Source: a virus (lineage: Duplodnaviria; Caudoviricetes). From it: a stretch of 51,923 nt of DNA. The notes beneath the pieces are model-generated. The model was not told where the DNA came from. It worked only from the letters and a program-made list of their open reading frames with translations, and made no database searches. A program made the translations under genes and the position numbers. Of this stretch, positions 4,590 through 49,535 are shown in pieces (position 1 is the stretch's first letter; every line of letters starts with the position of its first letter). The stretch spans positions 1 through 51,923 of IMG/VR virus record IMGVR_UViG_3300017996_000002; one strand, 5' to 3'.

Positions 4590-4837
4590 AAATCCTGATT
4601 TTTTAGTGAGGGCTTAAGATAGCAGCGCGCCAGCCAACAGGCAAACCCGATTGACTTATAGTTATTATTAGTGCCTGAAGGGTACCCTGGCACTTTTTAA
4701 TCTCTGTTCCTTTCAAAATATTTATAGTAGTATGTATCATTCTGTTCTTATACTACTATAGATATTTTCAGATATGTTGAGAGAAAAATTGACTATCCCC
4801 TGTCGTCTTTGATAATACTACTAAAGGATACCTACTC
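4590..4837. other. AT-rich intergenic region with inverted repeats (candidate origin or divergent promoter region)
   Basis: Markedly AT-rich in a GC-rich genome. It contains TATAGTAGTAT / ATACTACTATA inverted copies and a third ATACTACTA. Confidence 0.45.
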
Positions 4838-5326
4838 ATGTCTAAGTTAGATGAACTTGATGCGAAATACGCTAGAGAACTTCGCGACGCCGCGCGTGAG
4901 GCCGAGCGCCCCGCGCGTGAGGCCGCCGCCCGGGCGATACTAGAAGCTAAGTTAGAGAGCAAAGCCCGGCGTGATAAAGCGCGGGCCGCCCGTGACGCGG
5001 CTCGCGCTCGGCGCGAACCTGTCTTTGATTCCGGATTCCCTTGCAAACGCGGGCACAACTCGGCGCGCTATACGTGCAACGGCGGCTGCCTTGAATGCCT
5101 CGGAATAGCAATCCCTAAGATTGACGATCACGTGCAAGATCGCATTGCAATTGAATGGATCGTGCGAAAAGGATTGACTGCTCCGATCGGTGCCCCGCTA
5201 TTGAACTATTTAACAGAATGCTTTGTGACGTATTTCGATCATCACGGCGATAAGAACGTGCTCGAACGTCACAAACTCGAAGCGATGCGCGCCACGGGAA
5301 AGCCCTACGGCGTCGACGTCGGCTAA
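4838..5326 (+). CDS. Hypothetical protein with coiled coil and Cys/His zinc-binding motif
   Basis: PCKRGHNSARYTCNGGCLEC motif; AAGGA RBS. Confidence 0.7.
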   Translation: MSKLDELDAKYARELRDAAREAERPAREAAARAILEAKLESKARRDKARAARDAARARREPVFDSGFPCKRGHNSARYTCNGGCLECLGIAIPKIDDHVQDRIAIEWIVRKGLTAPIGAPLLNYLTECFVTYFDHHGDKNVLERHKLEAMRATGKPYGVDVG

Positions 5327-5520
5327 TGGCTCAGAAGATCAGGCGCCGGGCTCGGATAGGCGGCCGGCGCCGTCCCCTGAAGCCGTGGGAAGCCGCCAGG
5401 CTGGCGCGCAACTCCCGCGAGGTGTGCCGGTGCGACTGTATGCCGTTCCCGCACCGTGCGGGCTCACGTTCCGTTGTGCGGATAGGCCGATCGTCTATTA
5501 CAGTCAAATGTGACGCTTGA
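5326..5520 (+). CDS. Small basic protein with CxCxxxxFPHR motif
   Basis: TAATG overlap with the upstream gene; CRCDCMPFPHRAGS. Confidence 0.55.
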   Translation: MAQKIRRRARIGGRRRPLKPWEAARLARNSREVCRCDCMPFPHRAGSRSVVRIGRSSITVKCDA

Positions 5521-5571
5521 CGCGGCGCACATCCGGTAGGGTTGGACCTTAGCCCAAGGATATCCCCCACC

Positions 5572-5694
5572 ATGAACCGCCCGCCCATCCTATGCAATTG
5601 CGCGCCTGACGCTCAGCACCATGAATACGACATATGGAACGAACACGACGGCGAGGGCTCACTCGAAGGCTCGGGCGACGGGGATGATTATTAG
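5572..5694 (+). CDS. Small acidic hypothetical protein (40 aa)
   Basis: MNRPPILCNCAPDAQHHEYDIWNEHDGEGSLEGSGDGDDY, with AAGGA upstream. Confidence 0.4.
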   Translation: MNRPPILCNCAPDAQHHEYDIWNEHDGEGSLEGSGDGDDY

Positions 5695-5696
5695 AA

Positions 5697-5739
5697 TGTG
5701 ACGTGGGTCTCGACGCCTCGGTCAGTTATGCGCGATAAT
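5697..5739 (+). promoter_or_regulatory. Class II CRP-like promoter with overlapping CGAC-N6-GTCA operator
   Basis: TGTGA-cgtggg-TCTCG, 21 nt, GATAAT. Operator at 5711-5724. Confidence 0.7.
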
Positions 5740-5772
5740 ACTCGCGTCTAAACAATCGAGGAGCTTTTACAA

Positions 5773-6576
5773 ATGTTTAAATTACCAATCGACCTGAACG
5801 CCATCAAGGCGCTCGAATTGTTCGCCGGCAAGGACGACGTATTGTTCGCCGGCAAGGACGACGAGCGGCACTACTTGAACGGCATCTGGGTCTGCGCAAT
5901 CGATGCGCGCACCGTGCGCGTGGTCGCGACAGACGGGTATACCTTGGCCGAGCATCGCGTCGCGCTGCAGGAGGGCGGCATGGAGTTCACCGGTGGATTC
6001 CCTCAGTCGGGGATCATCCCGCGCGACGCGTTCAAAGCACTCAAGGGCTTTACCGTCTTATCAATCGAGCCGGGCTCCAAGGGCACATTCGACCCGCCAC
6101 GCTACTCAATCAATGACGGCGAGCGCGTCGGCAAACTGATCGACGGCACGTTCCCTGACATCGATCGGATATGGCCGTCGTCTGTCAGTCTCGAAGCAAC
6201 ACATTTGGATCCGGACTACGTCGCACGCGTCGGCAAGGCGGCGCACCTGCTTGCCGGTAAGGGCCTGCTCCGCTCGGCCTTTTTTCAGAACGGGTCGAAC
6301 CCCACGGTGTTCAAAGTGCGCGACGACTTCGCGGGCCTCATCATGCCCGAGCGCACGGACAAGGCGAGCATGCCTGAGTGGACGCCGACCAAGTCGCTCG
6401 GAGATCCGATCCGCGAGGCCGCCAAAGAGACAGTGATTGCGCTGCGCGATCTGTATGACTGCGCCGCCGCCGGCATTCTGCCGAAGTCGACCGACGATGT
6501 TCTTAGCAACGCGCGTAAGTTACTGACGCGGATCGGGATCATGACGCGTGACGACATCGCGGGCATTAACAACTGA
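5773..6576 (+). CDS. DNA polymerase III beta-clamp-like protein
   Basis: The motifs DxRHYLNGI, VVATDGYTL and IDGTFPDIDRIWP echo DnaN (D.RY.LNG, VATDGHRL, IDG.FPDY.RV.P). GAGGAG RBS. Confidence 0.75.
   Translation: MFKLPIDLNAIKALELFAGKDDVLFAGKDDERHYLNGIWVCAIDARTVRVVATDGYTLAEHRVALQEGGMEFTGGFPQSGIIPRDAFKALKGFTVLSIEPGSKGTFDPPRYSINDGERVGKLIDGTFPDIDRIWPSSVSLEATHLDPDYVARVGKAAHLLAGKGLLRSAFFQNGSNPTVFKVRDDFAGLIMPERTDKASMPEWTPTKSLGDPIREAAKETVIALRDLYDCAAAGILPKSTDDVLSNARKLLTRIGIMTRDDIAGINN
5817..5863 (+). repeat. 24-nt in-frame tandem duplication
   Basis: ATTGTTCGCCGGCAAGGACGACG occurs twice and encodes LFAGKDD-V-LFAGKDD. Confidence 0.9.
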
Positions 6577-18826: not shown

Positions 18827-19603
18827 ATGAAATTGACAAAAGTGATCGTTAAAAAATGGGATGCTTGCGCCGAAGGGTACAAGTATTTCTTAGAGAATTT
18901 CCCGCAAGGCGGGGACTATGCAGCCGTGCAGTCCAAGCTACACGCCGACAAAAAATTTGAATGGGCGTCATGGCTCACGAACGCAGCATGGAAGGCCGCA
19001 TTTGAGACGCCGGCCGAAATGTACGCGCTGACAAAATCGGAAGTCGATCAAACGATTGCAGACGCGAAGGATTCGCCACAATCAGCCACGGGCTACGGCA
19101 GCACGGCGGCGAGTTCGGGCGACGGCAGCAAGGCGGCGAGTTCGGGCAACTACAGCAAGGCAGCGAGTTCGGGCTACGGCAGCACGGCGGCGAGTTCGGG
19201 CGACGGCAGCACGGCGGCGAGTTCGGGCAACTACAGCAAGGCGGCAAGTTCGGGCAACTACAGCAAGGCGGCGAGTTCGGGCAACTACAGCAAGGCGGCG
19301 AGTTCGGGCGACGGCAGCACGGCGGCGAGTTCGGGCTACGGCAGCACGGCGGCGAGTTCGGGCTACGGCAGCAAGGCGGCGAGTTCGGGCGACGGCAGCA
19401 CGGCGGCGAGTTCGGGCTACGGCACCGTTGCCTTTGTGGCTGGCATCGATGGGTCGGCAAAGGCCGGCGACAACGGCTGTATCGCACTGTGCTACTACGA
19501 CGGCAAGCGCAATCGAGTGCTCGTCGGCTATGTCGGCGAGGATGGGATCGAGGCTGACACGTTCTATGTCGCTCGCGGAGGGAAATTAGTCAAGCAAGTC
19601 TGA
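18827..19603 (+). CDS. Nonapeptide-repeat phage protein (SSGxxSxAA repeats)
   Basis: GGAG RBS; about 12.5 repeats; C-terminal VGYVGEDGIEADTFY. Confidence 0.85.
   Translation: MKLTKVIVKKWDACAEGYKYFLENFPQGGDYAAVQSKLHADKKFEWASWLTNAAWKAAFETPAEMYALTKSEVDQTIADAKDSPQSATGYGSTAASSGDGSKAASSGNYSKAASSGYGSTAASSGDGSTAASSGNYSKAASSGNYSKAASSGNYSKAASSGDGSTAASSGYGSTAASSGYGSKAASSGDGSTAASSGYGTVAFVAGIDGSAKAGDNGCIALCYYDGKRNRVLVGYVGEDGIEADTFYVARGGKLVKQV
19085..19423 (+). repeat. 27-nt coding tandem repeat
   Basis: Units such as GGCTACGGCAGCACGGCGGCGAGTTCG. Confidence 0.9.
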
Positions 19604-20120: not shown

Positions 20121-20558
20121 TTACCCGCCCGCGTCGGTGATCACCCACTTGCACACGGTAGCGATTGCGAGTTGCGTACTTGACGAAATAGCGCCCTGAG
20201 TCGCGATTGATATCTGAGCTTGTATCGCCTCGGTAACGGCCGCGGTCAAGATACCCGCGAGAATCTGATCAGCCGCGGGCAAATTGAGCGCGAGAACTTT
20301 GTTGTTGATCAGTTTCTCGACGTCGGGCAAAGCGACGGACACGCCGGTATCAGCGGCAAGTACGGCCTTCGCGATTGAAACAATACGCGCGGCTTTCACG
20401 GCGTCGCCTTTGACTACCGAAGCAACAGCCACGGCGACGGCGGCCTGTTCGAGCGGCACGGCGGCCGGCGACTGGGTGTAGGCGTTGATCGCCGCGCATC
20501 CGTCGAGGGTGAGCATGGACAACATGCATAAGGCGAAACTCGATCGGGCGTTTCTCAT
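20121..20558 (-). CDS. Lipoprotein in lysis cassette (possible spanin-like)
   Basis: MRNARSSFALCMLSMLTLDG|C is lipobox-like; the gene follows the holin. Confidence 0.55.
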   Translation of the reverse strand: MRNARSSFALCMLSMLTLDGCAAINAYTQSPAAVPLEQAAVAVAVASVVKGDAVKAARIVSIAKAVLAADTGVSVALPDVEKLINNKVLALNLPAADQILAGILTAAVTEAIQAQISIATQGAISSSTQLAIATVCKWVITDAGG

Positions 20559-20794
20559 GGCTTCGGATCTCCAATGGTGGGGGAAAGCGTGATGGCTGCC
20601 GGCTTCTTTTCCTGATACGCGATCAGTATGACGGCGACGACAGTCGACACGGTATGAATTGCAGTCGCGGACAATCCGAGACTCGCGAGAAAATCCGGCG
20701 TGATGTACGGTAAAGCATTCCCGATGATCCCGATAGCGGCGCCGAAGTAATTCGAGATTTGTTTTAACTGAGGCTTGACAATTGACTCAGACAT
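20555..20794 (-). CDS. Putative holin (2 TM)
   Basis: 79 aa with two hydrophobic segments, directly after the endolysin. Confidence 0.65.
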   Translation of the reverse strand: MSESIVKPQLKQISNYFGAAIGIIGNALPYITPDFLASLGLSATAIHTVSTVVAVILIAYQEKKPAAITLSPTIGDPKP

Positions 20795-20804
20795 GTGATT
20801 GCTC

Positions 20805-21329
20805 CTACTTAATGGCGGCAGTATACACCGTTAGTAGGCGGCGCATCCACCCCAATTCGAACACCGCCGAATTGAGCTTCGCATAATGCACGGCCCGATG
20901 GGCGGCGTACTCTAGCGCTAAAGCGTCATGATCCGCGTGCGCCGTTATGGCGGCTATTGTACCCGCCCCGACTACCTGATCAACTTTGACGTTGAGCGCC
21001 TGTTGCAGAAGCATTACGGCGGTTCCCGGCCCTTCGTTGACGCCACCGTCAAACGCGAGCGCGGCCACGCCGGACGCGGTCCCCACGATTTGGGCCGCGC
21101 CGGTCGTGACCCACTGATCGCATTCGTACAAATGCGTGACGTGCGCGACAGTCAGATCCTTAACGTTCGCCGGCATGGTTGGGTCCGAATGTTGCCCGTG
21201 GGCGTTGACGTGGTCGAGATATTTTTGCGTGATTCCCATGTTGGTAGGGCCGCCCGGGTCTTTCGGGTTGTTCACATACCCGCCCTCAAGCTTGATCGTC
21301 AACGCGATTATTTCGGCTTGCGTCATCAT
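20805..21329 (-). CDS. Endolysin, glycoside hydrolase family 108
   Basis: EGGYVNNPKDPGGPTNMGIT; FDGGVN.G; LQQAL; F..GWMRR. Confidence 0.92.
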   Translation of the reverse strand: MMTQAEIIALTIKLEGGYVNNPKDPGGPTNMGITQKYLDHVNAHGQHSDPTMPANVKDLTVAHVTHLYECDQWVTTGAAQIVGTASGVAALAFDGGVNEGPGTAVMLLQQALNVKVDQVVGAGTIAAITAHADHDALALEYAAHRAVHYAKLNSAVFELGWMRRLLTVYTAAIK

Positions 21330-21339
21330 CTGGAAACCC

Positions 21340-21603
21340 TCAATGTTTTACCCATTCAATTAGTCCCGTGACTGAGGCTCCGACAGTCGCCGCCGCGCAT
21401 GTCACGGCCCATAGCGCGCCCTTGCCACGGTCTAACGTGCCGTTTAATTCGGTTACGGCTGTCGTCAATTTCGCGACCTGAACCGCGAGAGCGTCTATCT
21501 TGACGTCGTGGGCGGCCCGCGTCTCGCGCAACGCCGTGACTTGCTCGCGCAAATCGTGGATCGTATCGGCGTCGGCTCGTGCCATCATGTGAATATCGCT
21601 CAT
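21340..21603 (-). CDS. Coiled-coil protein with C-terminal TM (lysis-associated)
   Basis: Heptad region followed by GKGALWAVTCAAATVGASV; precedes the endolysin. Confidence 0.6.
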   Translation of the reverse strand: MSDIHMMARADADTIHDLREQVTALRETRAAHDVKIDALAVQVAKLTTAVTELNGTLDRGKGALWAVTCAAATVGASVTGLIEWVKH

Positions 21604-39928: not shown

Positions 39929-40792
39929 CTATCGGAATTGCAACAACTGCGCATCGGCAACCATTACGTCGGAACCCGCGCGGCCGGCTTCGACCAAAGC
40001 TATATGGTTCGCGATTAGCGATCGCATGATCCCGTCAAACTTGGAGCCATCTGGCGCCGTGCCTGGCGTCATATCAGCTTTGTACCGATACCCGCACGAA
40101 ATCTCGCGCTTCGTCTCGTCCTCAATGCCTTTGATTGCCTCTCCGTCCCATACGGCGATGTCCGCCTTGAGATACGGCGCCTCGAAGCGCACGTTCGAGA
40201 CCGTGCCGGCGATGTAATATTTTTGCGGAGCGCCAGCGCTGACCGCGATATGCGTAACCATCAAAGGCTTATTTTCGTACGTTGGCGCCGCCGCGGCGAG
40301 TTCCGCCGGATCGCGGTAGAGCATGTACGTTTTCAGCGGGTCGAGTCCGAGCGCGATAGAGTCCGGAATCTCGGAGCCGAGATAGGGGCACACATTCGCT
40401 TTCGATATGTTGACGTTCTCGACGTGCAAATGTTGGTCGAGATCTGAGCGGCGCATCGAGCGGTCAAACGCGAACACAACTCGACGCGTCGAGCGGTCGA
40501 GCGCGAGAGACGCGGGGGGCGCGGAATCGGTCGCGGAACAATCGGCCTCGACTTCGATCTCGTCCTCGTCGCCCGCGTGCGTATGCTGAATCTTAGCGAC
40601 TTGGGCGCGCGTCAGGCGTTCGCAATCGTCCGCCTCGACGTCTATCTCGGCGTCCTCGACTTCGATCTCGTCCTCGCCGCGCGCCTTACGATAAGCAGCC
40701 GCCTTCGCTTGGTCCGGCGGGTGTCCGGCCCTAATCATTTCCGCGATATTGTGGGAAATAGTCTCTTGACTAGACCCGGCTTTAAGTGGCAT
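39929..40792 (-). CDS. Prohead protease (DUF2213)
   Basis: ISKANVCPYLG.EIP, YRDPAEL, EISCGYRY, NHIALVEAGRAGSDV.VAD. Confidence 0.88.
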   Translation of the reverse strand: MPLKAGSSQETISHNIAEMIRAGHPPDQAKAAAYRKARGEDEIEVEDAEIDVEADDCERLTRAQVAKIQHTHAGDEDEIEVEADCSATDSAPPASLALDRSTRRVVFAFDRSMRRSDLDQHLHVENVNISKANVCPYLGSEIPDSIALGLDPLKTYMLYRDPAELAAAAPTYENKPLMVTHIAVSAGAPQKYYIAGTVSNVRFEAPYLKADIAVWDGEAIKGIEDETKREISCGYRYKADMTPGTAPDGSKFDGIMRSLIANHIALVEAGRAGSDVMVADAQLLQFR

Positions 40793-40798
40793 GCGGTC

Positions 40799-40827
40799 AT
40801 AATACCGGACGCCGGCCGGGTTGTCAT
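40799..40827 (-). promoter_or_regulatory. Sigma70-like promoter giving a leaderless protease mRNA
   Basis: ATGACA-17-TATTAT, then 6 nt, then the ATG at 40792. Confidence 0.55.
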
Positions 40828-41789
40828 CTGGCCCGAGCCAGGGCCGATTCCAGCAAGCCCCGAGGTCGGGACGCTTTCGCACGTGCTACGGCCTCGGCGA
40901 CGTTATCGACCGCGGGAAGCACGGCCTTGCTCGTGCATCGGCAATTTATCAACTCGCCAGGCAATACATATGCGCCCTCGTCACTATCCCACATGCCCGC
41001 GCTGATCAGGTAGGCTTTGCCGTCCATCTTAACGTGCGTCTTACGCGGAACCTTACCGCCGGCCGAGTGCATCCATATCGCATGCGTTACACCGATCTCT
41101 TGCCGGCGGGTGCGTTCGATGGTCGCCTTCGCTTTCGCGTTCTGATCGCCGGCAATGAGCGCCGCGCGCTCGCGCGTGATCCCGTACGTTTCGCGTAGGT
41201 CGACAGACAGCGCGTGCATGTCGCCGCCTTTCATGACGGACGCCCATACTTTCGTCTGTACATCCTTGAGGTATTGCGCCGGTATCGAGCGAATCAGGTT
41301 CACTTGTTCGGCAGCCACGGCTTGATAGGCCGCGATGCTTCCCGGCGTCGGATCGAACTTCACGGTAAAACCCGCGTCCTTAAACGCCGCCTTCATTTGG
41401 ATTTGAGTCACGCCGAACGCTTTACGGGCGAACTTACGCGATAGCTCAAGGCTGAGTTTTTCAATTTTCAGCGTCCACTTTTTGCCGATGCGGGTAAGCG
41501 CCCGACGAATGAATAGCGACGAGTTCGGCGGGTCCGCATCCGTCGCCATGTCAGGATACCAGCAAGCAAAATTACCGGCGGCGTCGACACGCAGCGGGTG
41601 AAATACACTTCGGGTATCGTGCGCAAATTCGGCGGGCTCGATAGCCGAATAAGCGCCGAGCACAGCGGCCCGCACGTCCTCATGCATGACATTGACGAAG
41701 GCGATCATCTCGGCCTCGTACCAACGCCGTACCCCGACATTTGGGTGTATGGCGCGGACAGTTACCGGCTTATCCTTGTTTGGGCGCAT
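40824..41789 (-). CDS. Head morphogenesis protein (Mu gpF / SPP1 gp7-like)
   Basis: LIRSIP.QY, RAALIA.DQ..KA, W.HS...PRKTH...DGK, LPGELINCRC. Confidence 0.9.
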   Translation of the reverse strand: MRPNKDKPVTVRAIHPNVGVRRWYEAEMIAFVNVMHEDVRAAVLGAYSAIEPAEFAHDTRSVFHPLRVDAAGNFACWYPDMATDADPPNSSLFIRRALTRIGKKWTLKIEKLSLELSRKFARKAFGVTQIQMKAAFKDAGFTVKFDPTPGSIAAYQAVAAEQVNLIRSIPAQYLKDVQTKVWASVMKGGDMHALSVDLRETYGITRERAALIAGDQNAKAKATIERTRRQEIGVTHAIWMHSAGGKVPRKTHVKMDGKAYLISAGMWDSDEGAYVLPGELINCRCTSKAVLPAVDNVAEAVARAKASRPRGLLESALARAR

Positions 41790-42495
41790 CGGTAATTACG
41801 TGTTGATGCGGAGTGAATGACTCGAACAACTTCTTAAGATGCGCGACGTGTTCGGTGCGGCTGTCCAGATCGGCGCCCGCGTGTGCGTTGATTGGCGGCC
41901 GGTCATCGGTGAGCTTATCGCATTCCCATGCGTCGAGGATGATTCCCGCGCAGCAAATAATACTCGCAAGATGGGGAACTAGCGTTCCCTGCAGCTCGCC
42001 CTCGGCGTCCAGGCCGAGCATGTCGCCGTCGCACCACTCACCCTCTTGCAGTCGCGCCATGTGGCGATAAATCGCGTCGAGGTAAATCGAAATACGCACG
42101 CCCGCGCGCCGCCAGTTGTATTTGCCGTACTTCAAGGCGCCCTCGGTAAAGCCGAGCGCGGCGTATCGCATGACGGCCGTGGGTACTAGATGCATGGAAA
42201 GCTTCCCGGCGCCTACAGCGTCCTTGGGATTCGTGGGCTTCGTGATCGTTCCGGTAAATACGGGCTGCGCGAGCGGCGCAGATAAAGGACAGTCTTTATC
42301 GTGATTCACCGCGGCGCCTAAAGGGCCGCACGAACAACAGCATAAAAATGCGTCGACTTTTTGCGGCGCCGGCACGGGCTCGGCCGGCGGCTTCATATCG
42401 AGCGACCCGCAATTCAGGCAGAATTTGCCGCTGGCGTCCGCGGTGTGCCCATGCACCACGCAATACCGGCTGATCGAATCCGTTTGTGTGCTCAC
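41770..42495 (-). CDS. dATP/dGTP diphosphohydrolase (DUF5664-like) with N-terminal Cys-rich region
   Basis: NPKDAVGAGKLSMHLVP...GALKYGKYNWR..GV..SIYLDAIYRH...HLA..ICCAGIILDA...LTDDRP. Confidence 0.82.
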   Translation of the reverse strand: MSTQTDSISRYCVVHGHTADASGKFCLNCGSLDMKPPAEPVPAPQKVDAFLCCCSCGPLGAAVNHDKDCPLSAPLAQPVFTGTITKPTNPKDAVGAGKLSMHLVPTAVMRYAALGFTEGALKYGKYNWRRAGVRISIYLDAIYRHMARLQEGEWCDGDMLGLDAEGELQGTLVPHLASIICCAGIILDAWECDKLTDDRPPINAHAGADLDSRTEHVAHLKKLFESFTPHQHVITDAPKQG

Positions 42496-42496
42496 C

Positions 42497-44113
42497 TTAA
42501 TCCCTCCTATGTCGACCATTTACGATCGTAAAAAGCTGGCGCTTACCGCCTGGGTATATGAGCCCGTCCGTGTGCATCCATGACGAGGGCGAACCCTTTG
42601 CGTAAGGTTGATCAGTCTTCGCGTTGTGACCGACTTGCATACAGCCTTCGTTGATTCCCGGCCCGTGGCCGTGCCCAATCATAGTCTTTTCGCCGATGCG
42701 GCGCATATTCTTAATACTGCCCTTCGAACCATTCGGTCCTTTGTGCCCGTGATATCCGCATTGGATACCTTCAATTATGAGCGACTCGCCGAGCGCGAGC
42801 GCCCGCAGATTCTTTTGCTTGCGCGCCGTGATCAAGAACGGAAACGGGGACGGGTACGAGGGCATACCGTCGACCAACATAGCGCCGTCAACCATAAACT
42901 TAGCGCACCGCAGATAGAAGGCGCGGTTTTTTGTTGCCAGTTTTTTCCAGTCTTTATCTCGCACCCACTGGCGCAAAAAATCGTCGTGATTACACGCGAC
43001 CACGAACGACATTGCCCACGGCGGCGTACGCGTGCCGGCGTAACTGATCGAGAATTTTACTTCCGCCTCGACGTCGTCCATATCCTCGGTAGCTAGGGCT
43101 TGCTCGGCGAACGGGTCGCGGTCCTCATGCGGATTGTGGCTTTGCCCGTCGTCCAAGTCGTGCCACACGAGGCGCCGCGGTCGGTATCGTTCAACTACGC
43201 CCTTGGGTCCGAATGTAGCGACGTCCACGACGGGATCGGCAACCCGGGCGTGAGTATCCCCGAGCACGAGCGCCGCCGGCCTCGGGGCTTTACGGACACC
43301 CGAGGGCGTGAATTTTTTGTCGAAATCGATAAACTCGCCGCGCGAGTTCATATTCAAATGCCGAAGCCAAAAGTACGGCCCTTCGATTTCGACGAGCACG
43401 GCGCCGACCGTATGGTGAAAATCGCCGAGCTTACCCACGCGCGAGCGCGTGTAGTTCTTTTTCGTGATCGCGCCCGTGGTCGTGAGCGCCGCGGCCATCT
43501 TATGCCCGGGCGTCGCTACAGTCTTAAATTGCAACTTCGTGTGTCCGACGATTTTCGACTTCGCGCCAAAGCCTTCAAGGCCGTTGATGGGCTCCGAGGC
43601 CGTCGGGATAATATTTATATCCGCCAAAAACTCAAGGTTTTTGTTGAGCGAACGGCGGACGTTCCATAGATACGGCATGACACGCTCGTCCCACCATTGG
43701 CTCGATTCGTCCCGCGCCGACCATATCGACGTTGGATTGCGGTAGCTCAAGGGCTGGATCAGAAGTTCAGCGTTGAAATGCTTTACGGCATGCATGAGCG
43801 ACGCCCACGCGGCCGGGATAACCGGCGTAGCGTTCTGAGCCGCCGTGATGATAAACGTGGTGCAGTCGGGCCGCAATTCGCGCGTGAAAACGGGGAATTG
43901 TTCCTCGACTACATCGCCGCCGCCGCGCTGCGTTCGAACCTTCGCGCTTTTCGGATTCGTGGTCGAGTAACAATACGATTTTTCGGTGACGCCGGTGCTT
44001 TTCGTCCCGGTCTCTTTAACGCACGCCCAACGCTGGCGGCCGTTTGCGGCGTGCCCATTGCGCAACATGAGCCCGCCGCAGCGAGGGCATTTATACTCAC
44101 CGGATTTTTTCAC
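42497..44113 (-). CDS. T5 A1-like metallophosphoesterase/nuclease with N-terminal zinc ribbon
   Basis: FIITAAQNAT, INIIPTA..PI.G, TTGAITKKNY, HHTVGAVLVE, LGDTH, HDLDD, NHD, HGHKGPNGSKG, GHGH and SSW.HT...IY..GKR are co-linear with T5 A1 as I recall it. Confidence 0.82.
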   Translation of the reverse strand: MKKSGEYKCPRCGGLMLRNGHAANGRQRWACVKETGTKSTGVTEKSYCYSTTNPKSAKVRTQRGGGDVVEEQFPVFTRELRPDCTTFIITAAQNATPVIPAAWASLMHAVKHFNAELLIQPLSYRNPTSIWSARDESSQWWDERVMPYLWNVRRSLNKNLEFLADINIIPTASEPINGLEGFGAKSKIVGHTKLQFKTVATPGHKMAAALTTTGAITKKNYTRSRVGKLGDFHHTVGAVLVEIEGPYFWLRHLNMNSRGEFIDFDKKFTPSGVRKAPRPAALVLGDTHARVADPVVDVATFGPKGVVERYRPRRLVWHDLDDGQSHNPHEDRDPFAEQALATEDMDDVEAEVKFSISYAGTRTPPWAMSFVVACNHDDFLRQWVRDKDWKKLATKNRAFYLRCAKFMVDGAMLVDGMPSYPSPFPFLITARKQKNLRALALGESLIIEGIQCGYHGHKGPNGSKGSIKNMRRIGEKTMIGHGHGPGINEGCMQVGHNAKTDQPYAKGSPSSWMHTDGLIYPGGKRQLFTIVNGRHRRD

Positions 44114-44304
44114 TTGGGCTTGACCCGGGCGCCACGGGCGAAGCGCGCGGGCTCGTCCGGCACGGATTTAAGCGGGGCATCGACTGTCCGGCGTATGCTG
44201 GCGACAGCGCGCTTGTACGTCGGCGAATACTCGTCGACCGTCTGGCGCATGGATTGCTTGCGAGGTTTATTGATCAAGGTAAATCGCTCCAAGTAGGCAG
44301 ACAT
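44110..44304 (-). CDS. Small basic hypothetical protein (64 aa)
   Basis: Its stop overlaps the start of the A1-like gene. Confidence 0.5.
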   Translation of the reverse strand: MSAYLERFTLINKPRKQSMRQTVDEYSPTYKRAVASIRRTVDAPLKSVPDEPARFARGARVKPK

Positions 44305-44355
44305 AGGAAAGGATCGACAACGCGACGATAGCCATTATGAACCGCTCCGAGGATT

Positions 44356-44622
44356 TCATCGCTTGCGGTACTTCCACATAAAGAACAACCACGCCGCATT
44401 ACCGGCAACGATGCAAAGGCCGCCGGCAAAACTTAGCCATTGGGCCAAGTGGGGATAATAGTACAGATTCCAGAATCCCCAAAGGGTCATCGCCGCCGTT
44501 GCGAATTTGGACACACCGCGGGCTTGTTTGTCTTTCATGATCGCGCGTACGTGCATCCAAATGGATGCCCCGCCTAAGAATTCAAACGCTCCATTAACCG
44601 CGTCGGGTATCTGTACGATCAT
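44356..44622 (-). CDS. Small 3-TM membrane protein, SemiSWEET/PQ-loop-like
   Basis: 88 aa with three hydrophobic helices and an I.KDKQARGVS loop; there is no literal PQ. Confidence 0.6.
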   Translation of the reverse strand: MIVQIPDAVNGAFEFLGGASIWMHVRAIMKDKQARGVSKFATAAMTLWGFWNLYYYPHLAQWLSFAGGLCIVAGNAAWLFFMWKYRKR

Positions 44623-45215
44623 CTCGACAACTCGGCGAAGCGGTGCAAAAATGCGTCGCGCGCCGTGCGCGGCGATAGCGCCCTAGCAGAGAACCACGGA
44701 AGCACAAGCGCGAGATTCGCGCGAAACTCAGCCGTAGGCGTCAACCAATCGGCGGTCACGCCCGAGGGCAATAGGTCGCGCGCCTCGATAAAGAGCGCGT
44801 ACCAATCGGCGCATTTTACGCCCGGACTATGTCTCTTGGGCAGCCCGTAATATGCGCGCATGCGAGCTTCTAGAGCTCCCTCCATACGGCGATAATCGGG
44901 CAATAGGGCTTTCCACGGGGTCGCAATGTCGGATACGTACGCCTCGTGTGCATCGTGCATAAGCCCCTCAAAGGGGGTAGCCGGCGCGATTCTGCACTCC
45001 GGAACTTGCGCGACGAGTTGCGAGACAAGTACGCTATGTTCAGCGACCGAGTAGAACTCCCGCGTGTGGCCCGTAAATCGACACTGCATTGACGCCGCGT
45101 GTGCGATTTCCTCGATATCGAAATGCGGGGCGGCTATGTAGAAACGGCGGCCTTTCACCGTTTGGATAAATAAATTTTTCTCTTTTTCCAAATACAGATC
45201 GGCGGCTTGCTGCAT
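44619..45215 (-). CDS. HD-domain phosphohydrolase (YfbR/YfdR-like 5'-deoxynucleotidase)
   Basis: IEEIAHA.S.QCRF.GH...FYSVAEHS...LMHDAHEAY..DI..P.K...VK.AD. Confidence 0.9.
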   Translation of the reverse strand: MQQAADLYLEKEKNLFIQTVKGRRFYIAAPHFDIEEIAHAASMQCRFTGHTREFYSVAEHSVLVSQLVAQVPECRIAPATPFEGLMHDAHEAYVSDIATPWKALLPDYRRMEGALEARMRAYYGLPKRHSPGVKCADWYALFIEARDLLPSGVTADWLTPTAEFRANLALVLPWFSARALSPRTARDAFLHRFAELSR

Positions 45216-45241
45216 ACGTTACTCCGTTTTATGGTTTTCGC

Positions 45242-45270
45242 ACGTTAGCGGAAACTGACCGAGGCGTCAA
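45242..45270 (-). promoter_or_regulatory. Sigma70 promoter with TGAC-N6-GTCA operator for the HD/A1 module
   Basis: Minus strand TTGACG-17-TAACGT; palindrome at 45256-45269. Confidence 0.6.
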
Positions 45271-46946
45271 CTCTTATTCTTAGCCGCTTTCGCCGCGAGC
45301 TTCGCTTCATGCTTGCGGTCAAGATCGTTTTGCTCGGCCTCGTGCGCGCGGTCCTTGTCGTTTTCCGCCGTCGGGTCCGCCTCGGGCGTGACGTTCGGGT
45401 CCACTTCAAGCTCGGGGTCTTCGGGTTCCTCGGGCTCGGGCGCCTTGCCGCTCAAATTCGAGTAGCCTGACTGCGGATCGTTCTGCAAGCGCGCTCGCGC
45501 CTCGTCCGGAGTAATGACGCTGTTCGTGATGTACGCGACATCCATATCGGCGTCAGACTTGCGAATCTCGCTCGATTCCTTGACCGTCGGGTCAGATAGC
45601 GATTCCCATTCGTAGCCGATATCGTCGTCAACTTCGCCGAACAAATCGCACTGCACGGCGATCAACAGCGTGTCGTAATGCGGTCCATAGAACTTGTTCT
45701 GAAACGCGCCGATCCAATCGTACCAACACGTAATCTCGCCCTCGCCCGTAGCGCCCAAGCCGGTCGGCGTAATGCCGAATAACTTGATCAATGGGATGTG
45801 GCCGGGAGACGCCATATGTTCTTGAGACTGAGCCTGTAGCTCGCTCAGGCCGGCAATGGGCGTATTGACTTGTACAAGCTCCTCGGAGTCCTTGTCGATC
45901 GCACCCACGCCTTGATTATTGCGACCTTGCACGAACAACTGTAGGCGGCGTAAGAGCCCATCGCCCGCCTCGGGACCGGCGCCTTCTTCGAGCGTGCTTT
46001 GCAGATTCGTCGAAAGCATCGTGATCGAAAAATTATTGACTAGATCATTGACGGCTTTGCGCGTGCGTAGCCACATGGACACGTACGGCTGCATAAGCTG
46101 ACTGAGCGAGATACCGCCGAAGTTGTACGCGGGCTTGAGTAGATCCGGAACCTCGCGACCGACGAACGTAAGGCAACGGGTCGCGTGCGTCTTGCGGCCC
46201 ATGATATACCATGATTGCGGCTTGTAAAAATCGTCGCGCTCGGGATACATCGCGTTCCACGAAAACGGCGTTGACCAATACGGCTCAATGCATTGGAGTG
46301 AGAGCAACGAGCCCTTAGCGATACCCTCGGGCGTGTACTCTAGCGGTAGCTGGCGCTTTTCGTCGCTCGTCTGCCCTTTGATGTTCAGGACGATTTGAGC
46401 GCGGCCGAATTCCCCATCGAGAAGCGCGGCCCGCTCGAACAGTTCGCGGACCTTCAATTCTTTCATGCGCGCGTCGATTTGCGCGATCTTGGCCGACTTG
46501 TCGCCGCCGGATTTCGAAACATGCTTGAGCCATTTGCGCGTCATTTCCGTTGACGTCGTTTCGGCCGGCGCGCGGAACTCGCTTATCTGCGTCAATTCCG
46601 CGAGATACGGATAGCCCGGGAAGAACAGCCCGCAGCCTAGCGCGTTGAATTGGTTGAGCCACCCGAAGACGGGCGCCGCCGAGTCAAGGGCCATTTCTGG
46701 CGCCTCGTCCATTGCGAGCTTGAGCCCGGTTTCAGCGGTCGGCTTGACGCTCGGCCGCACACCCGGGGGAAGCTCGGGCGCCTTGTATTCGGTCCACGTA
46801 CGCGCGTCCGGAGCCATTGCCGCGGCCGTCTGTTCGAGCAGCGCGCGACTGATAAAAAACGGCTTTTTCTTCGGCGCCTCGGGTGCGACAACGACGGGCG
46901 CGGGCGCAAGCCAGCGGGCTAAACGGGTGCGTAGTTTGGTGAGCAT
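45267..46946 (-). CDS. Portal protein (DUF1073)
   Basis: FPGYPYLAEL.Q..EFR, MTRKW, DLLKPAYNFGGISLSQ, IPLIKLFGITP.GL. Confidence 0.9.
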   Translation of the reverse strand: MLTKLRTRLARWLAPAPVVVAPEAPKKKPFFISRALLEQTAAAMAPDARTWTEYKAPELPPGVRPSVKPTAETGLKLAMDEAPEMALDSAAPVFGWLNQFNALGCGLFFPGYPYLAELTQISEFRAPAETTSTEMTRKWLKHVSKSGGDKSAKIAQIDARMKELKVRELFERAALLDGEFGRAQIVLNIKGQTSDEKRQLPLEYTPEGIAKGSLLSLQCIEPYWSTPFSWNAMYPERDDFYKPQSWYIMGRKTHATRCLTFVGREVPDLLKPAYNFGGISLSQLMQPYVSMWLRTRKAVNDLVNNFSITMLSTNLQSTLEEGAGPEAGDGLLRRLQLFVQGRNNQGVGAIDKDSEELVQVNTPIAGLSELQAQSQEHMASPGHIPLIKLFGITPTGLGATGEGEITCWYDWIGAFQNKFYGPHYDTLLIAVQCDLFGEVDDDIGYEWESLSDPTVKESSEIRKSDADMDVAYITNSVITPDEARARLQNDPQSGYSNLSGKAPEPEEPEDPELEVDPNVTPEADPTAENDKDRAHEAEQNDLDRKHEAKLAAKAAKNKS

Positions 46947-46953
46947 GGGCGGG

Positions 46954-46982
46954 AGTATGGCGGCCGAGCGTCCGGCCGTCAA
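46954..46982 (-). promoter_or_regulatory. Sigma70 promoter giving a near-leaderless portal mRNA
   Basis: TTGACG-17-CATACT, then 7 nt, then the ATG at 46946. Confidence 0.55.
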
Positions 46983-48604
46983 ATTTTACCTAGCAAATCA
47001 TCGCTTATGAAGAACTTAGCCTTGCGCGGGGCAAATGCCATCATAGTTGCATCCGCGAGGTTCGGCGACATAGTACCGTCCGGCTGTTTCTCGACTAGAA
47101 TTTTGCCGGCGTTGTTGATCGTGTATACGGGCTGCGACAATTCGATTATGAGCCGCGGTAGCTCGGCCATGTCACCGTCTATACTGATGATCGAATCCGC
47201 CTCGTACGGCAAGCCCTGCGACGCCTTGAACGATTCTTGGAAGCGGAACCGTAAACCACTCCACCATGCTTGAGCCTTGCGGTTCGCGAAAAAGTCTTCG
47301 TTCTTGCGATCGGTGCCGCGTACGATGCGCTCAGGAAATAGCGGCGACTCGGAACCCCTGAACGCGTGGACGTTGACCGGCCGCCCTTTCGGACGCCCAT
47401 CGGGGCCGCGCTCGGTTCGCTTGTCATTTAGCGCCTTCGCGTCGCCGCGCACACCCGCGCCCATGCCGTCCGCGTCATAATCAAAACTCGTCAGCTTGCG
47501 CTCGTCACATAACAGCATGGCCCGTGCCGTCGATTGATATAGGTCGGAGCCGACACCGGACCATTGCTCGACGTGCTTTAGTAAGATTCCCTTGCGATGC
47601 GCCCATGCGTTTTTATCGCGGCCCTCGTCGGCGATATCGAGCGCCGCGACGTCCGCGCCCGTGGGATCTATGCCGAGCTTTTTGTGCAAGTTGATTGCAG
47701 CCACTACCCATTCATTGCGGATAATGACGCCCTCGACCGAAGACGTATAGCTGATCTCGTACTCAGAACTCCATATGACCGGGTCTAGGCTCGCGCGTTT
47801 TTTGTCGGCCCATTCCTGATCGCGGCGCGGATCATCACGCCACGAAAATGTAAATACTTCTAGTTTGCCCTCGTGCCGTTTTTCGGCGAAGGCGTTCGCC
47901 ATGCCGATCACGCTCGACATGTCTTGACGGCAATCTGTATTCGCGGACAGCGACGCGTCGATTAATTTCGGGTGTTCAATGTGCGCCGATTCGTCGACGA
48001 AAAATATCGCGGTACGTCCGCCGCGGCCGATATTATCGCCGCTCTTGCCGATGATTGTCGACCCGGTCGCGGGGAACAGTAGGCGCATATGAGACGTGCA
48101 ATTCTTATTGCCGATATCCCAATCACCTTTAAAGCGACGCGGCAAATTTTGCGCGAACATGCGGCCCTTATAGAACAGCGAATCAGGATCGCCCGACGCG
48201 TCAACGTTTTCCTCTTTCGCTGAGCCGAAGCCAATCGCGACGTTCTTTCCGAGCACGCAAAGCGAAACGCTGTAGCCCATCGCGAGCCACGATATGCCGA
48301 TATCTCGGGATTTCTCCGTAAGACCGTCTTCTTTCGCTTTCCATTTTCGGTGGATGAAGTCCAGCCATTCGCGCTGACGGGGAAACAGAATGAACGGCAT
48401 GATCACGGGGATTGACGTCCCGGCGTTTTTGGGGTTAACGGTCATGCCCCAATCGCTGATGAAATCGGGGATATGCCCGTCAAGATAGTACGCCTTGATA
48501 CTGGCGAACTCGCGCGTGCTCAAGGCGTTTAGGCGCTTGATCGCGTCGGCGCGCTGGCGATAAATGCTGACATAGTCAGGGTGCTTGTAGTCGAGTTTGG
48601 GCAT
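46979..48604 (-). CDS. terL: Terminase large subunit
   Basis: PFILFPRQ, EKSRDIGISW, GRGGR..IFFVDESA, ALDIADEGRD, YDADGMGAG, SPNLADA. Confidence 0.95.
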   Translation of the reverse strand: MPKLDYKHPDYVSIYRQRADAIKRLNALSTREFASIKAYYLDGHIPDFISDWGMTVNPKNAGTSIPVIMPFILFPRQREWLDFIHRKWKAKEDGLTEKSRDIGISWLAMGYSVSLCVLGKNVAIGFGSAKEENVDASGDPDSLFYKGRMFAQNLPRRFKGDWDIGNKNCTSHMRLLFPATGSTIIGKSGDNIGRGGRTAIFFVDESAHIEHPKLIDASLSANTDCRQDMSSVIGMANAFAEKRHEGKLEVFTFSWRDDPRRDQEWADKKRASLDPVIWSSEYEISYTSSVEGVIIRNEWVVAAINLHKKLGIDPTGADVAALDIADEGRDKNAWAHRKGILLKHVEQWSGVGSDLYQSTARAMLLCDERKLTSFDYDADGMGAGVRGDAKALNDKRTERGPDGRPKGRPVNVHAFRGSESPLFPERIVRGTDRKNEDFFANRKAQAWWSGLRFRFQESFKASQGLPYEADSIISIDGDMAELPRLIIELSQPVYTINNAGKILVEKQPDGTMSPNLADATMMAFAPRKAKFFISDDLLGKI

Positions 48605-48689: not shown

Positions 48690-48732
48690 TGTGACGCAAG
48701 TCTCGACGCGCCGGTCAGTTTGGGGGTAGGAT
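48690..48732 (+). promoter_or_regulatory. Class II CRP-like promoter with overlapping operator
   Basis: TGTGA-cgcaag-TCTCG, 21 nt, TAGGAT. Operator CGACgcgccgGTCA at 48704-48717. Confidence 0.7.
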
Positions 48733-48764
48733 CGGCGCATCTAACAACCGAAGGAGTTTCCCGC

Positions 48765-49535
48765 ATGACGACGATTAAGAGCTACAAAGGCTTTGACCAA
48801 AATTGGAAATGTCGCGATTTCCAATACACGCTAGGCGGCGAGTACGAGCACTCGGGCGAAATCAAAGCATGTAACGCGGGCTTTCATGCATGCGAATATC
48901 CTCTCGACGTGTTTAATTACTATCCGCCCGCGTCGTCGCGTTTTGCGGAAGTCGAACAATCGGGCGAGTTGAGTCGCGAAGAAGGCGATTCTAAAATCGC
49001 TAGTTCAAAAATCCGCGTAAAAATTCAGCTATCGTTCGGCGATCTTATTAAGGCCGCGATTGATTACACGTTCTCTCGATCCAAACCGGAAGGCGAAAAA
49101 GCCACGGGGGATCAGGGCGCGGCTTCGGCCACGGGCTATCAGGGCGCGGCTTCGGCCACGGGCAATCAGGGCGCGGCTTCGGCCACGGGGGATCAGGGCG
49201 CGGCTTCGGCCACGGGCACTCGCGGCGCGGCTTCGGCCACGGGCAATCAGGGCGCGGCTTCGGCCACGGGCAATCAGGGCACGGCTTCGGCCACGGGCTA
49301 TCAGGGCGCGGCTTCGGCCACGGGCTATCAGGGCGCGGCTTCGGCCACGGGCTATCAGGGCCGAGCGAAAGGAATTCTAGGCTGCGCGCTCTTACTGGTA
49401 GAACGCGACGCTTTCGGCGAGATCATCTCGGCGGCCGGCGCTATCGTCGGTAAGAAAGGGATCAAGCCCGATACGTTTTACATGCTCAAGCGCGGCAAAT
49501 TCGTACAGGCGAAACTTACGTCGATAAAATCATGA
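48765..49535 (+). CDS. Nonapeptide-repeat phage protein (ATGxQGAAS repeats, DUF7666-like)
   Basis: [14 protein letters not shown]...[19 protein letters not shown]-domain; about 10 repeats; [10 protein letters not shown]-cap; AAGGAG RBS. Confidence 0.85.
49101..49361 (+). repeat. 27-nt coding tandem repeat
   Basis: Units such as GCCACGGGCAATCAGGGCGCGGCTTCG. Confidence 0.9.

Follow-up and report, generated by a model that had tools for sequence, protein, structure and literature searches.

What purpose is served by a compact run of enzyme and membrane-protein genes lying between the portal gene and the head morphogenesis gene of a tailed phage? The question is posed by the virus record IMGVR_UViG_3300017996_000002, the whole 51,923 bp of which were analysed (hereafter the window), and in which five minus-strand genes encode, in the order of transcription, an HD phosphohydrolase, an 88-residue three-helix membrane protein (TM88), a 64-residue basic protein (b64), a relative of the A1 protein of phage T5 and a protein of the DUF5664 family (Table 1). 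The answer that we hold to be probable, if only just, is that these genes, placed within the head operon, form a set for the catabolism of nucleic acids and nucleotides, leading from DNA and deoxynucleoside triphosphates (dNTPs) via deoxynucleoside monophosphates (dNMPs) to deoxynucleosides, and from there to export.

The A1-like protein aligns with T5 A1 in BLASTP at 28% identity over 469 residues (E 9e-44) and matches phrog_1745, a family annotated as 'DNA transfer protein' (E-values of the family matches not given in the text are in Table 1). In an alignment of 34 sequences its metallophosphoesterase signature (G285-D286-x-H288, D319, N375-H376, H455 and H483) is invariant, H481 is kept in at least 90% of the sequences, and motifs of the GDxH, D, NH, H and GHxH type are all retained. 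These data clearly support the initial annotation of the window, which had called the protein a T5 A1-like metallophosphoesterase. Read from the N-terminus, it consists of an IS1-type zinc ribbon (approximately residues 8-33), a middle domain and, at the C-terminal end, a calcineurin-like metallophosphoesterase domain; the first 33 or so residues match the IS1/IS1595-type zinc-binding domain NF050000 (1.7e-6, 28.5 bits against a cut-off of 28), and the alignment to T5 A1 starts at query residue 87, leaving the zinc ribbon outside. A PDB sequence search with either the A1-like or the DUF5664 protein returned nothing meaningful. The AlphaFold2 model of the A1-like protein (pLDDT, i.e. predicted local distance difference test, 89.6) found the archaeal PolD DP1 proofreading exonuclease as its best PDB neighbour in Foldseek (E 4e-4), followed by MPPED2, Vps29, Mre11 and purple acid phosphatases, in agreement with the Discussion of a recent T5 preprint (10.64898/2026.04.02.716235). 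Judged by homology and model, the protein is a predicted DNase. According to the same preprint, T5 A1 is necessary and sufficient for degradation of the host chromosome in vivo, and T5 Dmp converts nucleotides into nucleosides, which are then excreted; an export route is not named in those parts of the preprint on which we draw.

The preprint describes A1 as predominantly associated with Demerecviridae (10.64898/2026.04.02.716235), and outside T5-like phages isolated cases such as phiCbK, phiJL001 and KASIA had been recorded (PMC8541194, PMC3556154). By tblastn, A1 was present in 1132 of 50,697 cultured phage records, the largest groups being Vibrio, Salmonella, Escherichia and Klebsiella phages, with Flavobacterium, Caulobacter and Rhizobium phages also represented. 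An alignment-based search of viral contigs gave at least 536 matching stretches; a single-sequence scan of such contigs gave no confirmed relative. In Dinoroseobacter phage vB_DshS-R5C (locus L003) the A1 homologue, at 4767-6416, has the coat protein gene on one side and tail genes on the other. The small protein b64, noted initially as a 64-residue basic protein, is indeed strongly basic, and its homologues lie directly upstream of A1 in six of 80 A1 loci (L086, L087, L088, L092, L103 and L107). It has no family match in Pfam, PHROG or NCBIfam and no usable match in the ESM Atlas; its GC content at third codon positions (GC3) is 0.75 in frame, and its start codon is uncertain because the conserved part begins only at about residue 11. 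In the gap between TM88 and b64 a GGAG is followed 8 nt on by an ATG, which opens a strongly hydrophobic mini-ORF (open reading frame) of 22 codons at 44267-44335 on the minus strand, MAIVALSILSYVCLLGAIYLDQ; in a different frame, this mini-ORF overlaps the start listed for b64.

The DUF5664 protein passes the Pfam model PF18909 with 69.6 bits against a cut-off of 27 (residues 97-207, profile positions 2-99 of 99), well above the threshold, and also matches phrog_801 at 7.7e-16, so that its initial placement in a DUF5664-like dNTP hydrolase family can be retained. It carries a Cys/His-rich N-terminal extension, and its real start may be a GTG at 42495, one base past the A1 stop codon and behind an AGGAGG. 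The partner domain DUF550 (PF04447) had no match in the window. The purified stand-alone DUF5664 enzyme of Arthrobacter phage Wayne converts dATP, dUTP and dGTP into dNMPs (PMC12884076); because this enzyme is active without DUF550, it is reasonable, by analogy, to predict a dNTP pyrophosphohydrolase here as well. The family occurs in 233 of the 50,697 cultured phage records. The window contains no PurZ/adenylosuccinate synthetase, thymidylate-synthase-like or TGT/DpdA-like gene, and hence gives no sign of a modified genome; ten further ORFs of the window contained no base-modification domain. A Z-genome or other modified-base reading was accordingly tried and set aside, no PurZ, ThyA-like, TGT-like or DUF550 match being found in the window.

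The HD phosphohydrolase assignment likewise stands. The protein matches phrog_318 and, in the PDB, the HD protein 2gz4 (1e-11); its H...HD...D metal site (H60, H87, D88 and D137) is intact, with E91 following, and of 20 aligned relatives 19-20 retain H60, H87-D88, E91, D96 and D137. Against the Pfam YfbR-like model PF12917 it scored 15.4 bits, below the cut-off of 25.9, which relatives do pass, such as an ORF of locus L071 with 29.6 bits and the fused protein P0193 with 26.0 bits; homologues in phages and prophages bear the annotation yfdR or dNMP phosphatase. Taken together, these similarities make it a YfbR/YfdR-like predicted 5'-deoxynucleotidase. The idea of a counterpart to T5 Dmp survives in the sense of an analogue and fails in the sense of a homologue, since BLASTP found no similarity between the two (E 0.83) and T5 Dmp belongs to phrog_415 rather than phrog_318. 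A1 is thus paired with dNMP phosphatases of two unrelated families, in T5 and here, and we therefore see convergence on one pathway. The HD subfamily was found in 304 of the cultured records. NCBIfam gave no match for the HD protein, TM88, b64 or the DUF5664 protein.

For TM88, which the initial annotation had described as a SemiSWEET/PQ-loop-like protein with three transmembrane segments, there is structural evidence of kinship. An AlphaFold2 model built with 39 sequences reached a pLDDT of 94.5, with helices at residues 5-31, 39-59 and 62-84, and its first Foldseek match in the PDB was the SemiSWEET 4rng, with TM-scores of 0.84 and 0.88 and a root-mean-square deviation of 1.6 Å over 82 columns; 4qnc and 5uhs came next, and then the mitochondrial pyruvate carrier, the KDEL receptor, SWEETs and cystinosin, all of the same clan. 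The Foldseek E-values are weak (best 0.046), as is to be expected for a protein of only 88 residues. In the ESM Atlas, TM88 scored 0.94 on features against a 96% viral cluster automatically named MtN3-related, in which 10% of members carry PQ-loop, and 0.90 against a PQ-loop/MtN3_slv cluster; PQ-loop occurs in 10-44% of the members of neighbouring clusters, and the ten best family-bearing matches all belong to one clan. The description as SemiSWEET/PQ-loop-like is therefore upheld. A profile search of 1.84 billion cluster representatives returned 1184 family members at E <= 1e-3 and 920 at E <= 1e-10, and the 42 close homologues are all unannotated; the family is large and almost purely viral. 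In 39 sequences the residues W48, W51, N52, Y55, P57, Q61, W62, S64, G68 and N75 are invariant, and they lie in helices 2 and 3, the same helices in which the Trp/Asn substrate pocket of SemiSWEETs is located. To judge from the basic residues of loop 1 and of the C-terminal end, the N-terminus would lie outside and the C-terminus inside. Prediction of a homodimer gave a score of 0.34 against a mark of 0.42.

The strongest support for a link between a transporter-like protein and nucleotide enzymes comes, at the level of protein architecture, from fusions of TM88 to nucleotide hydrolases. We collected 17 long relatives of TM88 (eight of at least 200 residues among 150 listed, and ten from a search for longer forms, with one in common). 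Five of these end in an HD domain from the family to which the HD protein of the window belongs, with hidden Markov model (HMM) E-values of 1e-38 to 1e-56 and BLASTP E-values of 1e-15 to 2e-24 to the window protein, while two are fused to NUDIX, one to CYTH and one to an Rv2179c-like 3'-5' exonuclease. All of the recognized partners act on nucleotides or nucleic acids and are joined at the predicted cytoplasmic end. In four of the remaining eight, TM88 units are joined in tandem (3+1+3) by a strongly hydrophobic linker helix, an architecture that would correspond to a covalently joined SemiSWEET dimer and would fit TM88 working as a dimer, and four have tails with no recognized domain. One protein of 417 residues (P0197) is tripartite, consisting of a TM88 domain, a middle part of approximately 140 residues without a recognized family and an HD domain. 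The Rv2179c-like exonuclease was also found as a separate neighbour of TM88 or A1 in ten ORFs, at a distance of 11 nt in L030 and overlapping in L143. The initially proposed connection of the membrane protein with nucleotide enzymes thus holds as far as linkage, fusions and the SemiSWEET fold are concerned; that TM88 is itself a nucleoside exporter we put forward tentatively, and with rather more doubt than the pathway as a whole.

Gene linkage was counted with trimmed HMMs, including two DUF5664 models, in three sets of loci: the best 80 of 167 confirmed viral TM88 loci (±6 kb), 40 TM88 loci from genome_contigs, mostly contigs of metagenome-assembled genomes, and the best 80 of 536 viral A1 loci (±8 kb). 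The sets share some contigs (e.g. L009 = L162, L018 = L093 and L023 = L139). HD was present in 21 of the 80 viral TM88 loci, adjacent and on the same strand in 12, a DUF5664-like gene in 17 (eight adjacent) and A1 in eight; the corresponding figures for the 40 genome loci were nine (five adjacent), two and one, with none of the three in 28. Around A1, a DUF5664-like gene was found in 32 of 80 loci, HD in ten, b64 in six and TM88 in five, 42 having none of these. The frequencies in cultured records (HD 304, DUF5664 233 and TM88 one) refer to a different collection, so that their comparison with the loci is a rough one. All four families, i.e. A1, HD, TM88 and DUF5664-like, stand together on five other viral contigs (L009/L162, L010, L018/L093, L019 and L037), two of which are near-identical, and combinations of three families occur on many more. 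The families therefore do co-occur elsewhere. Among cultured phages, Microcystis phage Mwe-JY26 has HD, three genes, TM88 and then directly A1, and Rhizobium phage RHph_TM33 has A1, HD and DUF5664 consecutively.

In phages that share this head module A1 stays within it, but the remaining genes vary. In L086 the order is large terminase (TerL)-portal-four other ORFs-b64-like-A1-DUF5664-MuF, with L088 and L087 similar, whereas L162 has TerL-MuF-A1-HD-TM88-DUF5664-like-portal and L010 portal-MuF-A1-HD-TM88-DUF5664-like-protease. As L086, L087 and L088 keep b64-A1-DUF5664 alone and L162 and L010 reorder the genes, the conserved core of the phage clade is b64-A1-DUF5664, and HD-TM88 is a separate mobile pair. 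The suggestion of one portable cassette has to be given up on these data. The four ORFs between the portal gene and b64-A1 in L086 (5976-8001) include one that matches phrog_4786 'cysteine dioxygenase' at 3e-28, and the portal-adjacent space looks like a variable cargo site.

The five genes are embedded in the head operon and translationally coupled to it. The co-directional, tight packing between portal and head genes that the initial annotation reported is seen in the minus-strand ORFs at 41770-45215, and the GC3 of all five genes (0.63-0.75) equals the third-position bias of the head genes. The HD stop and TM88 start overlap in ATGA, the b64 stop and A1 start in GTGA, the A1 end overlaps the DUF5664 start as listed, and the DUF5664 gene end overlaps the MuF start by 20 nt; only two gaps are found in the block, from portal to HD and from TM88 to b64, each of 51 nt. 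In view of these overlaps and gaps, the block cannot be called self-contained, as it had been. Nor does the promoter and operator of its own once ascribed to it withstand examination. The letters TTGACG-17-TAACGT are present at 45270-45242 on the minus strand, the first hexamer containing the stop codon of the portal gene, but the second hexamer matches TATAAT at only three of six positions, and a promoter scan of the region did not list this site, finding three sites against 2.8 ± 1.8 in shuffled sequence. An exact search for the pattern gave a single match in the window and at least one in 13 of 100 shuffles, and no inverted repeat of at least 6 bases with a loop of up to 20 was found in 45200-45300, i.e. 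no operator-like dyad. With promoter-like site and dyad unsupported, we regard the block as belonging to the transcription unit of the head genes, and, given its position from portal to MuF without a supported promoter or terminator, early, T5-like expression is not indicated.

Table 1. Position, strand and best family evidence of the five genes, their neighbours and the lysis genes of the window
Feature	Position	Strand	Evidence or remark
Large terminase	46979-48604	-	First gene listed in order of transcription
Portal	45267-46982	-	PF06381 at 1.3e-68; upstream flank, same direction
HD phosphohydrolase, 198 residues	44619-45215	-	phrog_318 at 1.7e-59
TM88, 88-residue three-helix membrane protein	44356-44622	-	SemiSWEET/PQ-loop-clan fold
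b64, 64-residue basic protein	44110-44304	-	Isoelectric point 10.7
A1-like, 538 residues	42497-44113	-	phrog_1745 at 7.4e-126
DUF5664 protein, 249 residues as listed	41770-42519	-	PF18909 at 2.3e-19
MuF-like head morphogenesis	40824-41789	-	PF04233 at 6.9e-11; phrog_324 at 4.1e-62; downstream flank
DUF2213 protease	39929-40882	-	Followed by scaffold, cement and major head genes
GH108-like endolysin/muramidase	20805-21329	-	PDB 2is5/2ikb, 1.3e-18
Small membrane ORFs, lysis cassette	21340-21603, 20555-20794	-	Flank the endolysin
Lipoprotein-signal ORF, lysis cassette	20121-20558	-	Signal in ORF

The phage itself is rated 100% complete, with a direct terminal repeat of 103 bp. Because it has tail sheath, baseplate wedge, tape measure and major head protein genes together with a DNA polymerase, primase, helicase and exonuclease of its own, it is a contractile-tailed phage and, as the initial annotation had stated of the module's carrier, unrelated to T5; no tRNA genes were found in the window. 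Near-identical DNA of the region was found in many runs labelled as peat, wetland or soil metagenome, at least half of the sampled words being present in 11 of 24 runs among the matches listed; one of these 11 may be the run from which the record derives, and no RNA run was among those listed. The A1-b64-TM88-HD and HD-to-portal junctions are bridged by contigs of three other runs at 99% identity or more and without indels, and the arrangement is thus stable in nature. No DNA similarity of 41500-45500 to cultured phages was detected. In runs X2 and X3, one contig each diverges behind 41176 and another before 43350, which suggests a co-occurring strain with another segment from the 5' part of MuF through DUF5664 to the 3' part of A1, i.e. 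mosaic exchange within the module. One contig of run X3 skips 283 bases at 45449-45733, the 3' part of the portal gene that encodes an acidic low-complexity C-terminal tail. Elsewhere in the otherwise lytic-looking genome, a transposase-like ORF at 2532-3575 (+; phrog_506 at 9.7e-61) may be an insertion sequence element, a protein encoded directly after the DNA polymerase gene (18827-19603, +) has many tandem 'AASSG(D/N/Y)(G/Y)S(T/K)' repeats, and a DUF7666 protein with collagen-like repeats (48720-49535, +) is encoded divergently from the terminase gene.

We propose the following working scheme, which builds on the homologies, the fold of TM88, the intact catalytic residues, the linkage and the fusions, all of them established in the preceding paragraphs. 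The A1-type metallophosphoesterase would degrade DNA, perhaps controlled or targeted by the coupled b64, and the DUF5664 enzyme would turn dNTPs into dNMPs; the HD enzyme, at the inner face of the membrane, would dephosphorylate dNMPs to deoxynucleosides, and TM88, acting as a SemiSWEET-like dimeric uniporter, would release these from the cell. The whole would amount to the 'degrade and excrete' strategy of T5, rebuilt with a DNase homologous to that of T5, a dNMP phosphatase that is not homologous, and an exporter of its own. Each of these activities, the substrate and transport direction of TM88 and the time of expression are predictions. Going further, TM88 might be the founder of a large and almost exclusively viral branch of SemiSWEET/PQ-loop proteins for (deoxy)nucleosides, in which it would form a 'hydrolyse-and-expel' unit with an HD 5'-nucleotidase, fused or apposed to the membrane, or with NUDIX, CYTH or exonuclease partners, a generalization that we consider possible and slightly more doubtful than export by TM88 alone.

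Several observations weigh against this scheme. TM88 is only weakly tied by sequence to known transporters: it passes no Pfam model (PHROG and NCBIfam being empty as well), MtN3_slv was touched by one of 39 family members at E 0.17, and a PDB sequence-profile search with TM88 gave no matches. The P-Q dipeptide is the defining motif of the SemiSWEET/PQ-loop family, and it is absent from helix 1 both of TM88 and of the family consensus. With regard to linkage, 49 of the 80 viral TM88 loci have no HD, DUF5664-like or A1 gene within 6 kb, TM88 is found in only five of the 80 A1 loci, most TM88 and A1 genes lying apart, and the closest relative, L086, with an A1 that is 65% identical, lacks HD and TM88, as do L088 and L087. 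T5 has no TM88 homologue, and among the 50,697 cultured phage records TM88 occurs in just one, that of Microcystis phage Mwe-JY26. The block occupies a late-operon position, with no supported promoter or terminator for it within a long co-directional structural stretch, and the scheme does not explain how the phage's own DNA and dNTP supply would be spared. Finally, according to the preprint, nuclease activity of purified A1 has yet to be shown even for T5 (10.64898/2026.04.02.716235).

These difficulties invite other explanations, of which one concerns TM88 alone. The fusions prove only that hydrolases are tethered to a membrane domain, and TM88 could be an anchor or scaffold that places HD, and elsewhere NUDIX, CYTH or exonuclease, at the inner membrane, possibly where A1 works or DNA enters, with nucleosides leaving by host routes. 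T5 A1 is said to fractionate with membranes (PMC3556154), and in T5 the gene immediately before A1, T5.005, encodes a protein with two membrane helices. A mere anchor, however, would need neither a fold superimposing on SemiSWEET at TM-scores of 0.84/0.88, nor invariant W48, W51, N52, Y55, Q61, W62 and N75 inside helices 2 and 3 in 39 sequences, nor tandems that copy the 3+1+3 architecture of SWEETs, and most members of the family are stand-alone proteins; we therefore consider this explanation unlikely. Still less probable is that TM88 is a lysis or exclusion protein, e.g. a three-helix holin, that lies near nucleotide genes by chance. A small three-helix protein with a basic tail, here KYRKR, does resemble the topology of class I holins, but the separate lysis cassette at 20121-21603 on the minus strand (Table 1) makes a holin role unlikely, an endolysin gene was never beside TM88 in the neighbour clusters, and the SemiSWEET fold and the fusions to cytoplasmic hydrolases also disfavour it, so that we give this view hardly any credence.

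Two further explanations concern the enzymes and their place in the genome. The enzymes might shape the dNTP pool, excluding a canonical base from a modified genome or starving the replication of the host or a competitor, rather than dispose of host DNA, with A1 serving elsewhere, e.g. in RNA polymerase binding or DNA transfer. DUF5664 and DatZ-type HD enzymes do shape pools in Z-genome phages (PMC12884076), T5 A1 is pleiotropic, and a role with RNA polymerase has been proposed for other A1-bearing phages (PMC8541194, PMC3556154). Against this stand the missing PurZ, thymidylate-synthase-like, TGT/DpdA-like and base-modification genes of the window described above and the full retention of the A1 catalytic motifs, and the exonuclease and DNase genes with which TM88 is associated suit breakdown better, which leaves pool shaping quite improbable in our estimation. 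The head-operon position could, alternatively, be functional in itself, with A1 and perhaps its neighbours made late, either as capsid cargo ejected along with the phage DNA or to remove the DNA of the host ahead of packaging; the set would then be a late or virion-linked device instead of a takeover module. All relatives that share this head module have A1 among the TerL, portal, MuF and protease genes, though in differing orders, in Dinoroseobacter phage R5C it stands among structural genes as described above, and the DUF5664 gene overlaps that of MuF. However, A1 homologues lie in the replication modules of RHph_TM33, Xoo-sp13 and Mwe-JY26, and also of phiCbK and KASIA (PMC8541194, PMC3556154), and a membrane protein such as TM88 is an improbable capsid cargo; we rate this option as marginally less probable again than pool shaping. 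The catabolic pathway ending in export is thus the reading that we continue to prefer.

Singly, the components were known already: A1 homologues outside T5-like phages, HD dNMP phosphatases and DUF5664 enzymes have all been described. The recurring guild, with its non-homologous replacement of Dmp, appears to be undescribed in the literature searched, supplementary distribution tables aside, and so does a viral SemiSWEET-fold family linked or fused to nucleotide hydrolases, again leaving supplements aside. By term search, phages and viruses are unmentioned in the accessible text of two SemiSWEET surveys (PMC5972207, PMC5742349), and at the level of titles and abstracts the literature yielded no phage SemiSWEET and no link between bacteriophage, PQ-loop and nucleosides; within those bounds, the transporter link does appear uncharacterized, as was initially supposed. 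That T5 breaks down the DNA of its host and excretes what results is long-established knowledge. The present data add that A1 is widespread and repeatedly travels with dNTP and dNMP hydrolases and, in a subset, with a SemiSWEET-fold membrane protein, and the fusions give a directly testable hypothesis of a viral nucleoside exporter. If it is true, a nucleoside efflux system encoded by a virus would be seen for the first time, the export step that is missing from T5-style DNA destruction would be supplied, and the SWEET/PQ-loop clan would gain a new substrate class. Such a system could also remove nucleotide-derived immune signals, and it would open a way to study how phages drain the nucleotide pools of their hosts, a matter relevant to nucleotide-sensing and nucleotide-depleting defences.

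Comparison with known systems shows how each component resembles, and departs from, its best-studied relatives. With the YfbR/YfdR HD 5'-deoxynucleotidases the HD protein has in common the H...HD...D site and the Glu, and its relatives pass the YfbR-like model; it differs in falling below the Pfam cut-off itself, and its substrate is a predicted one. The DUF5664 protein has its PF18909 domain in common with the stand-alone enzyme of Wayne and the DUF5664-DUF550 enzyme of Acinetobacter phage SH-Ab 15497, whereas the window phage has neither PurZ nor DUF550, the protein carries the Cys/His-rich extension, and its gene follows A1, a pairing seen in 32 of 80 A1 loci. TM88 resembles SemiSWEETs (4rng, 4qnc and 4x5m) in its length and three-helix bundle, and the SemiSWEET/MtN3/PQ-loop clan in its tandem 3+1+3 relatives and in language-model neighbours that carry PQ-loop/MtN3_slv. 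It departs from them in an identity of 14-15%, in passing no Pfam model, in lacking the P-Q motif, in the almost purely viral make-up of its family, and in a context and fusions made up of nucleotide hydrolases and not sugar enzymes. The PnuC nicotinamide-riboside transporters presumably have a SWEET-like 3+1+3 fold and carry a nucleoside; no PnuC chain was among the Foldseek matches listed for TM88.

Another of the closest known systems is the pre-early one by which T5 destroys host DNA (A1, A2 and Dmp, with excretion of the breakdown products). The two differ in that the window genes stand in the head operon and not in a terminal repeat that enters in first-step transfer, the repeat of the window phage measuring only 103 bp; that the phosphatase is an HD protein of phrog_318 and not the phrog_415 Dmp, no homologue of T5 A2 or T5 Dmp being matched in the window in searches run without a positive control; and that A1 has an additional N-terminal zinc ribbon here, with a DUF5664 enzyme and a SemiSWEET-fold protein added to the set. 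T5.005 (L206, 3473-3670) is a protein of 65 residues with two membrane helices, and no sequence similarity of it to b64 or TM88 was seen. Nevertheless, both systems possess a homologous A1 with all of the metallophosphoesterase motifs, in both a gene for a dNMP phosphatase stands no more than a few kb from A1, on the same strand, and a small gene directly precedes A1, and in both the proposed outcome would be the same, namely the conversion of DNA into nucleosides that leave the cell.

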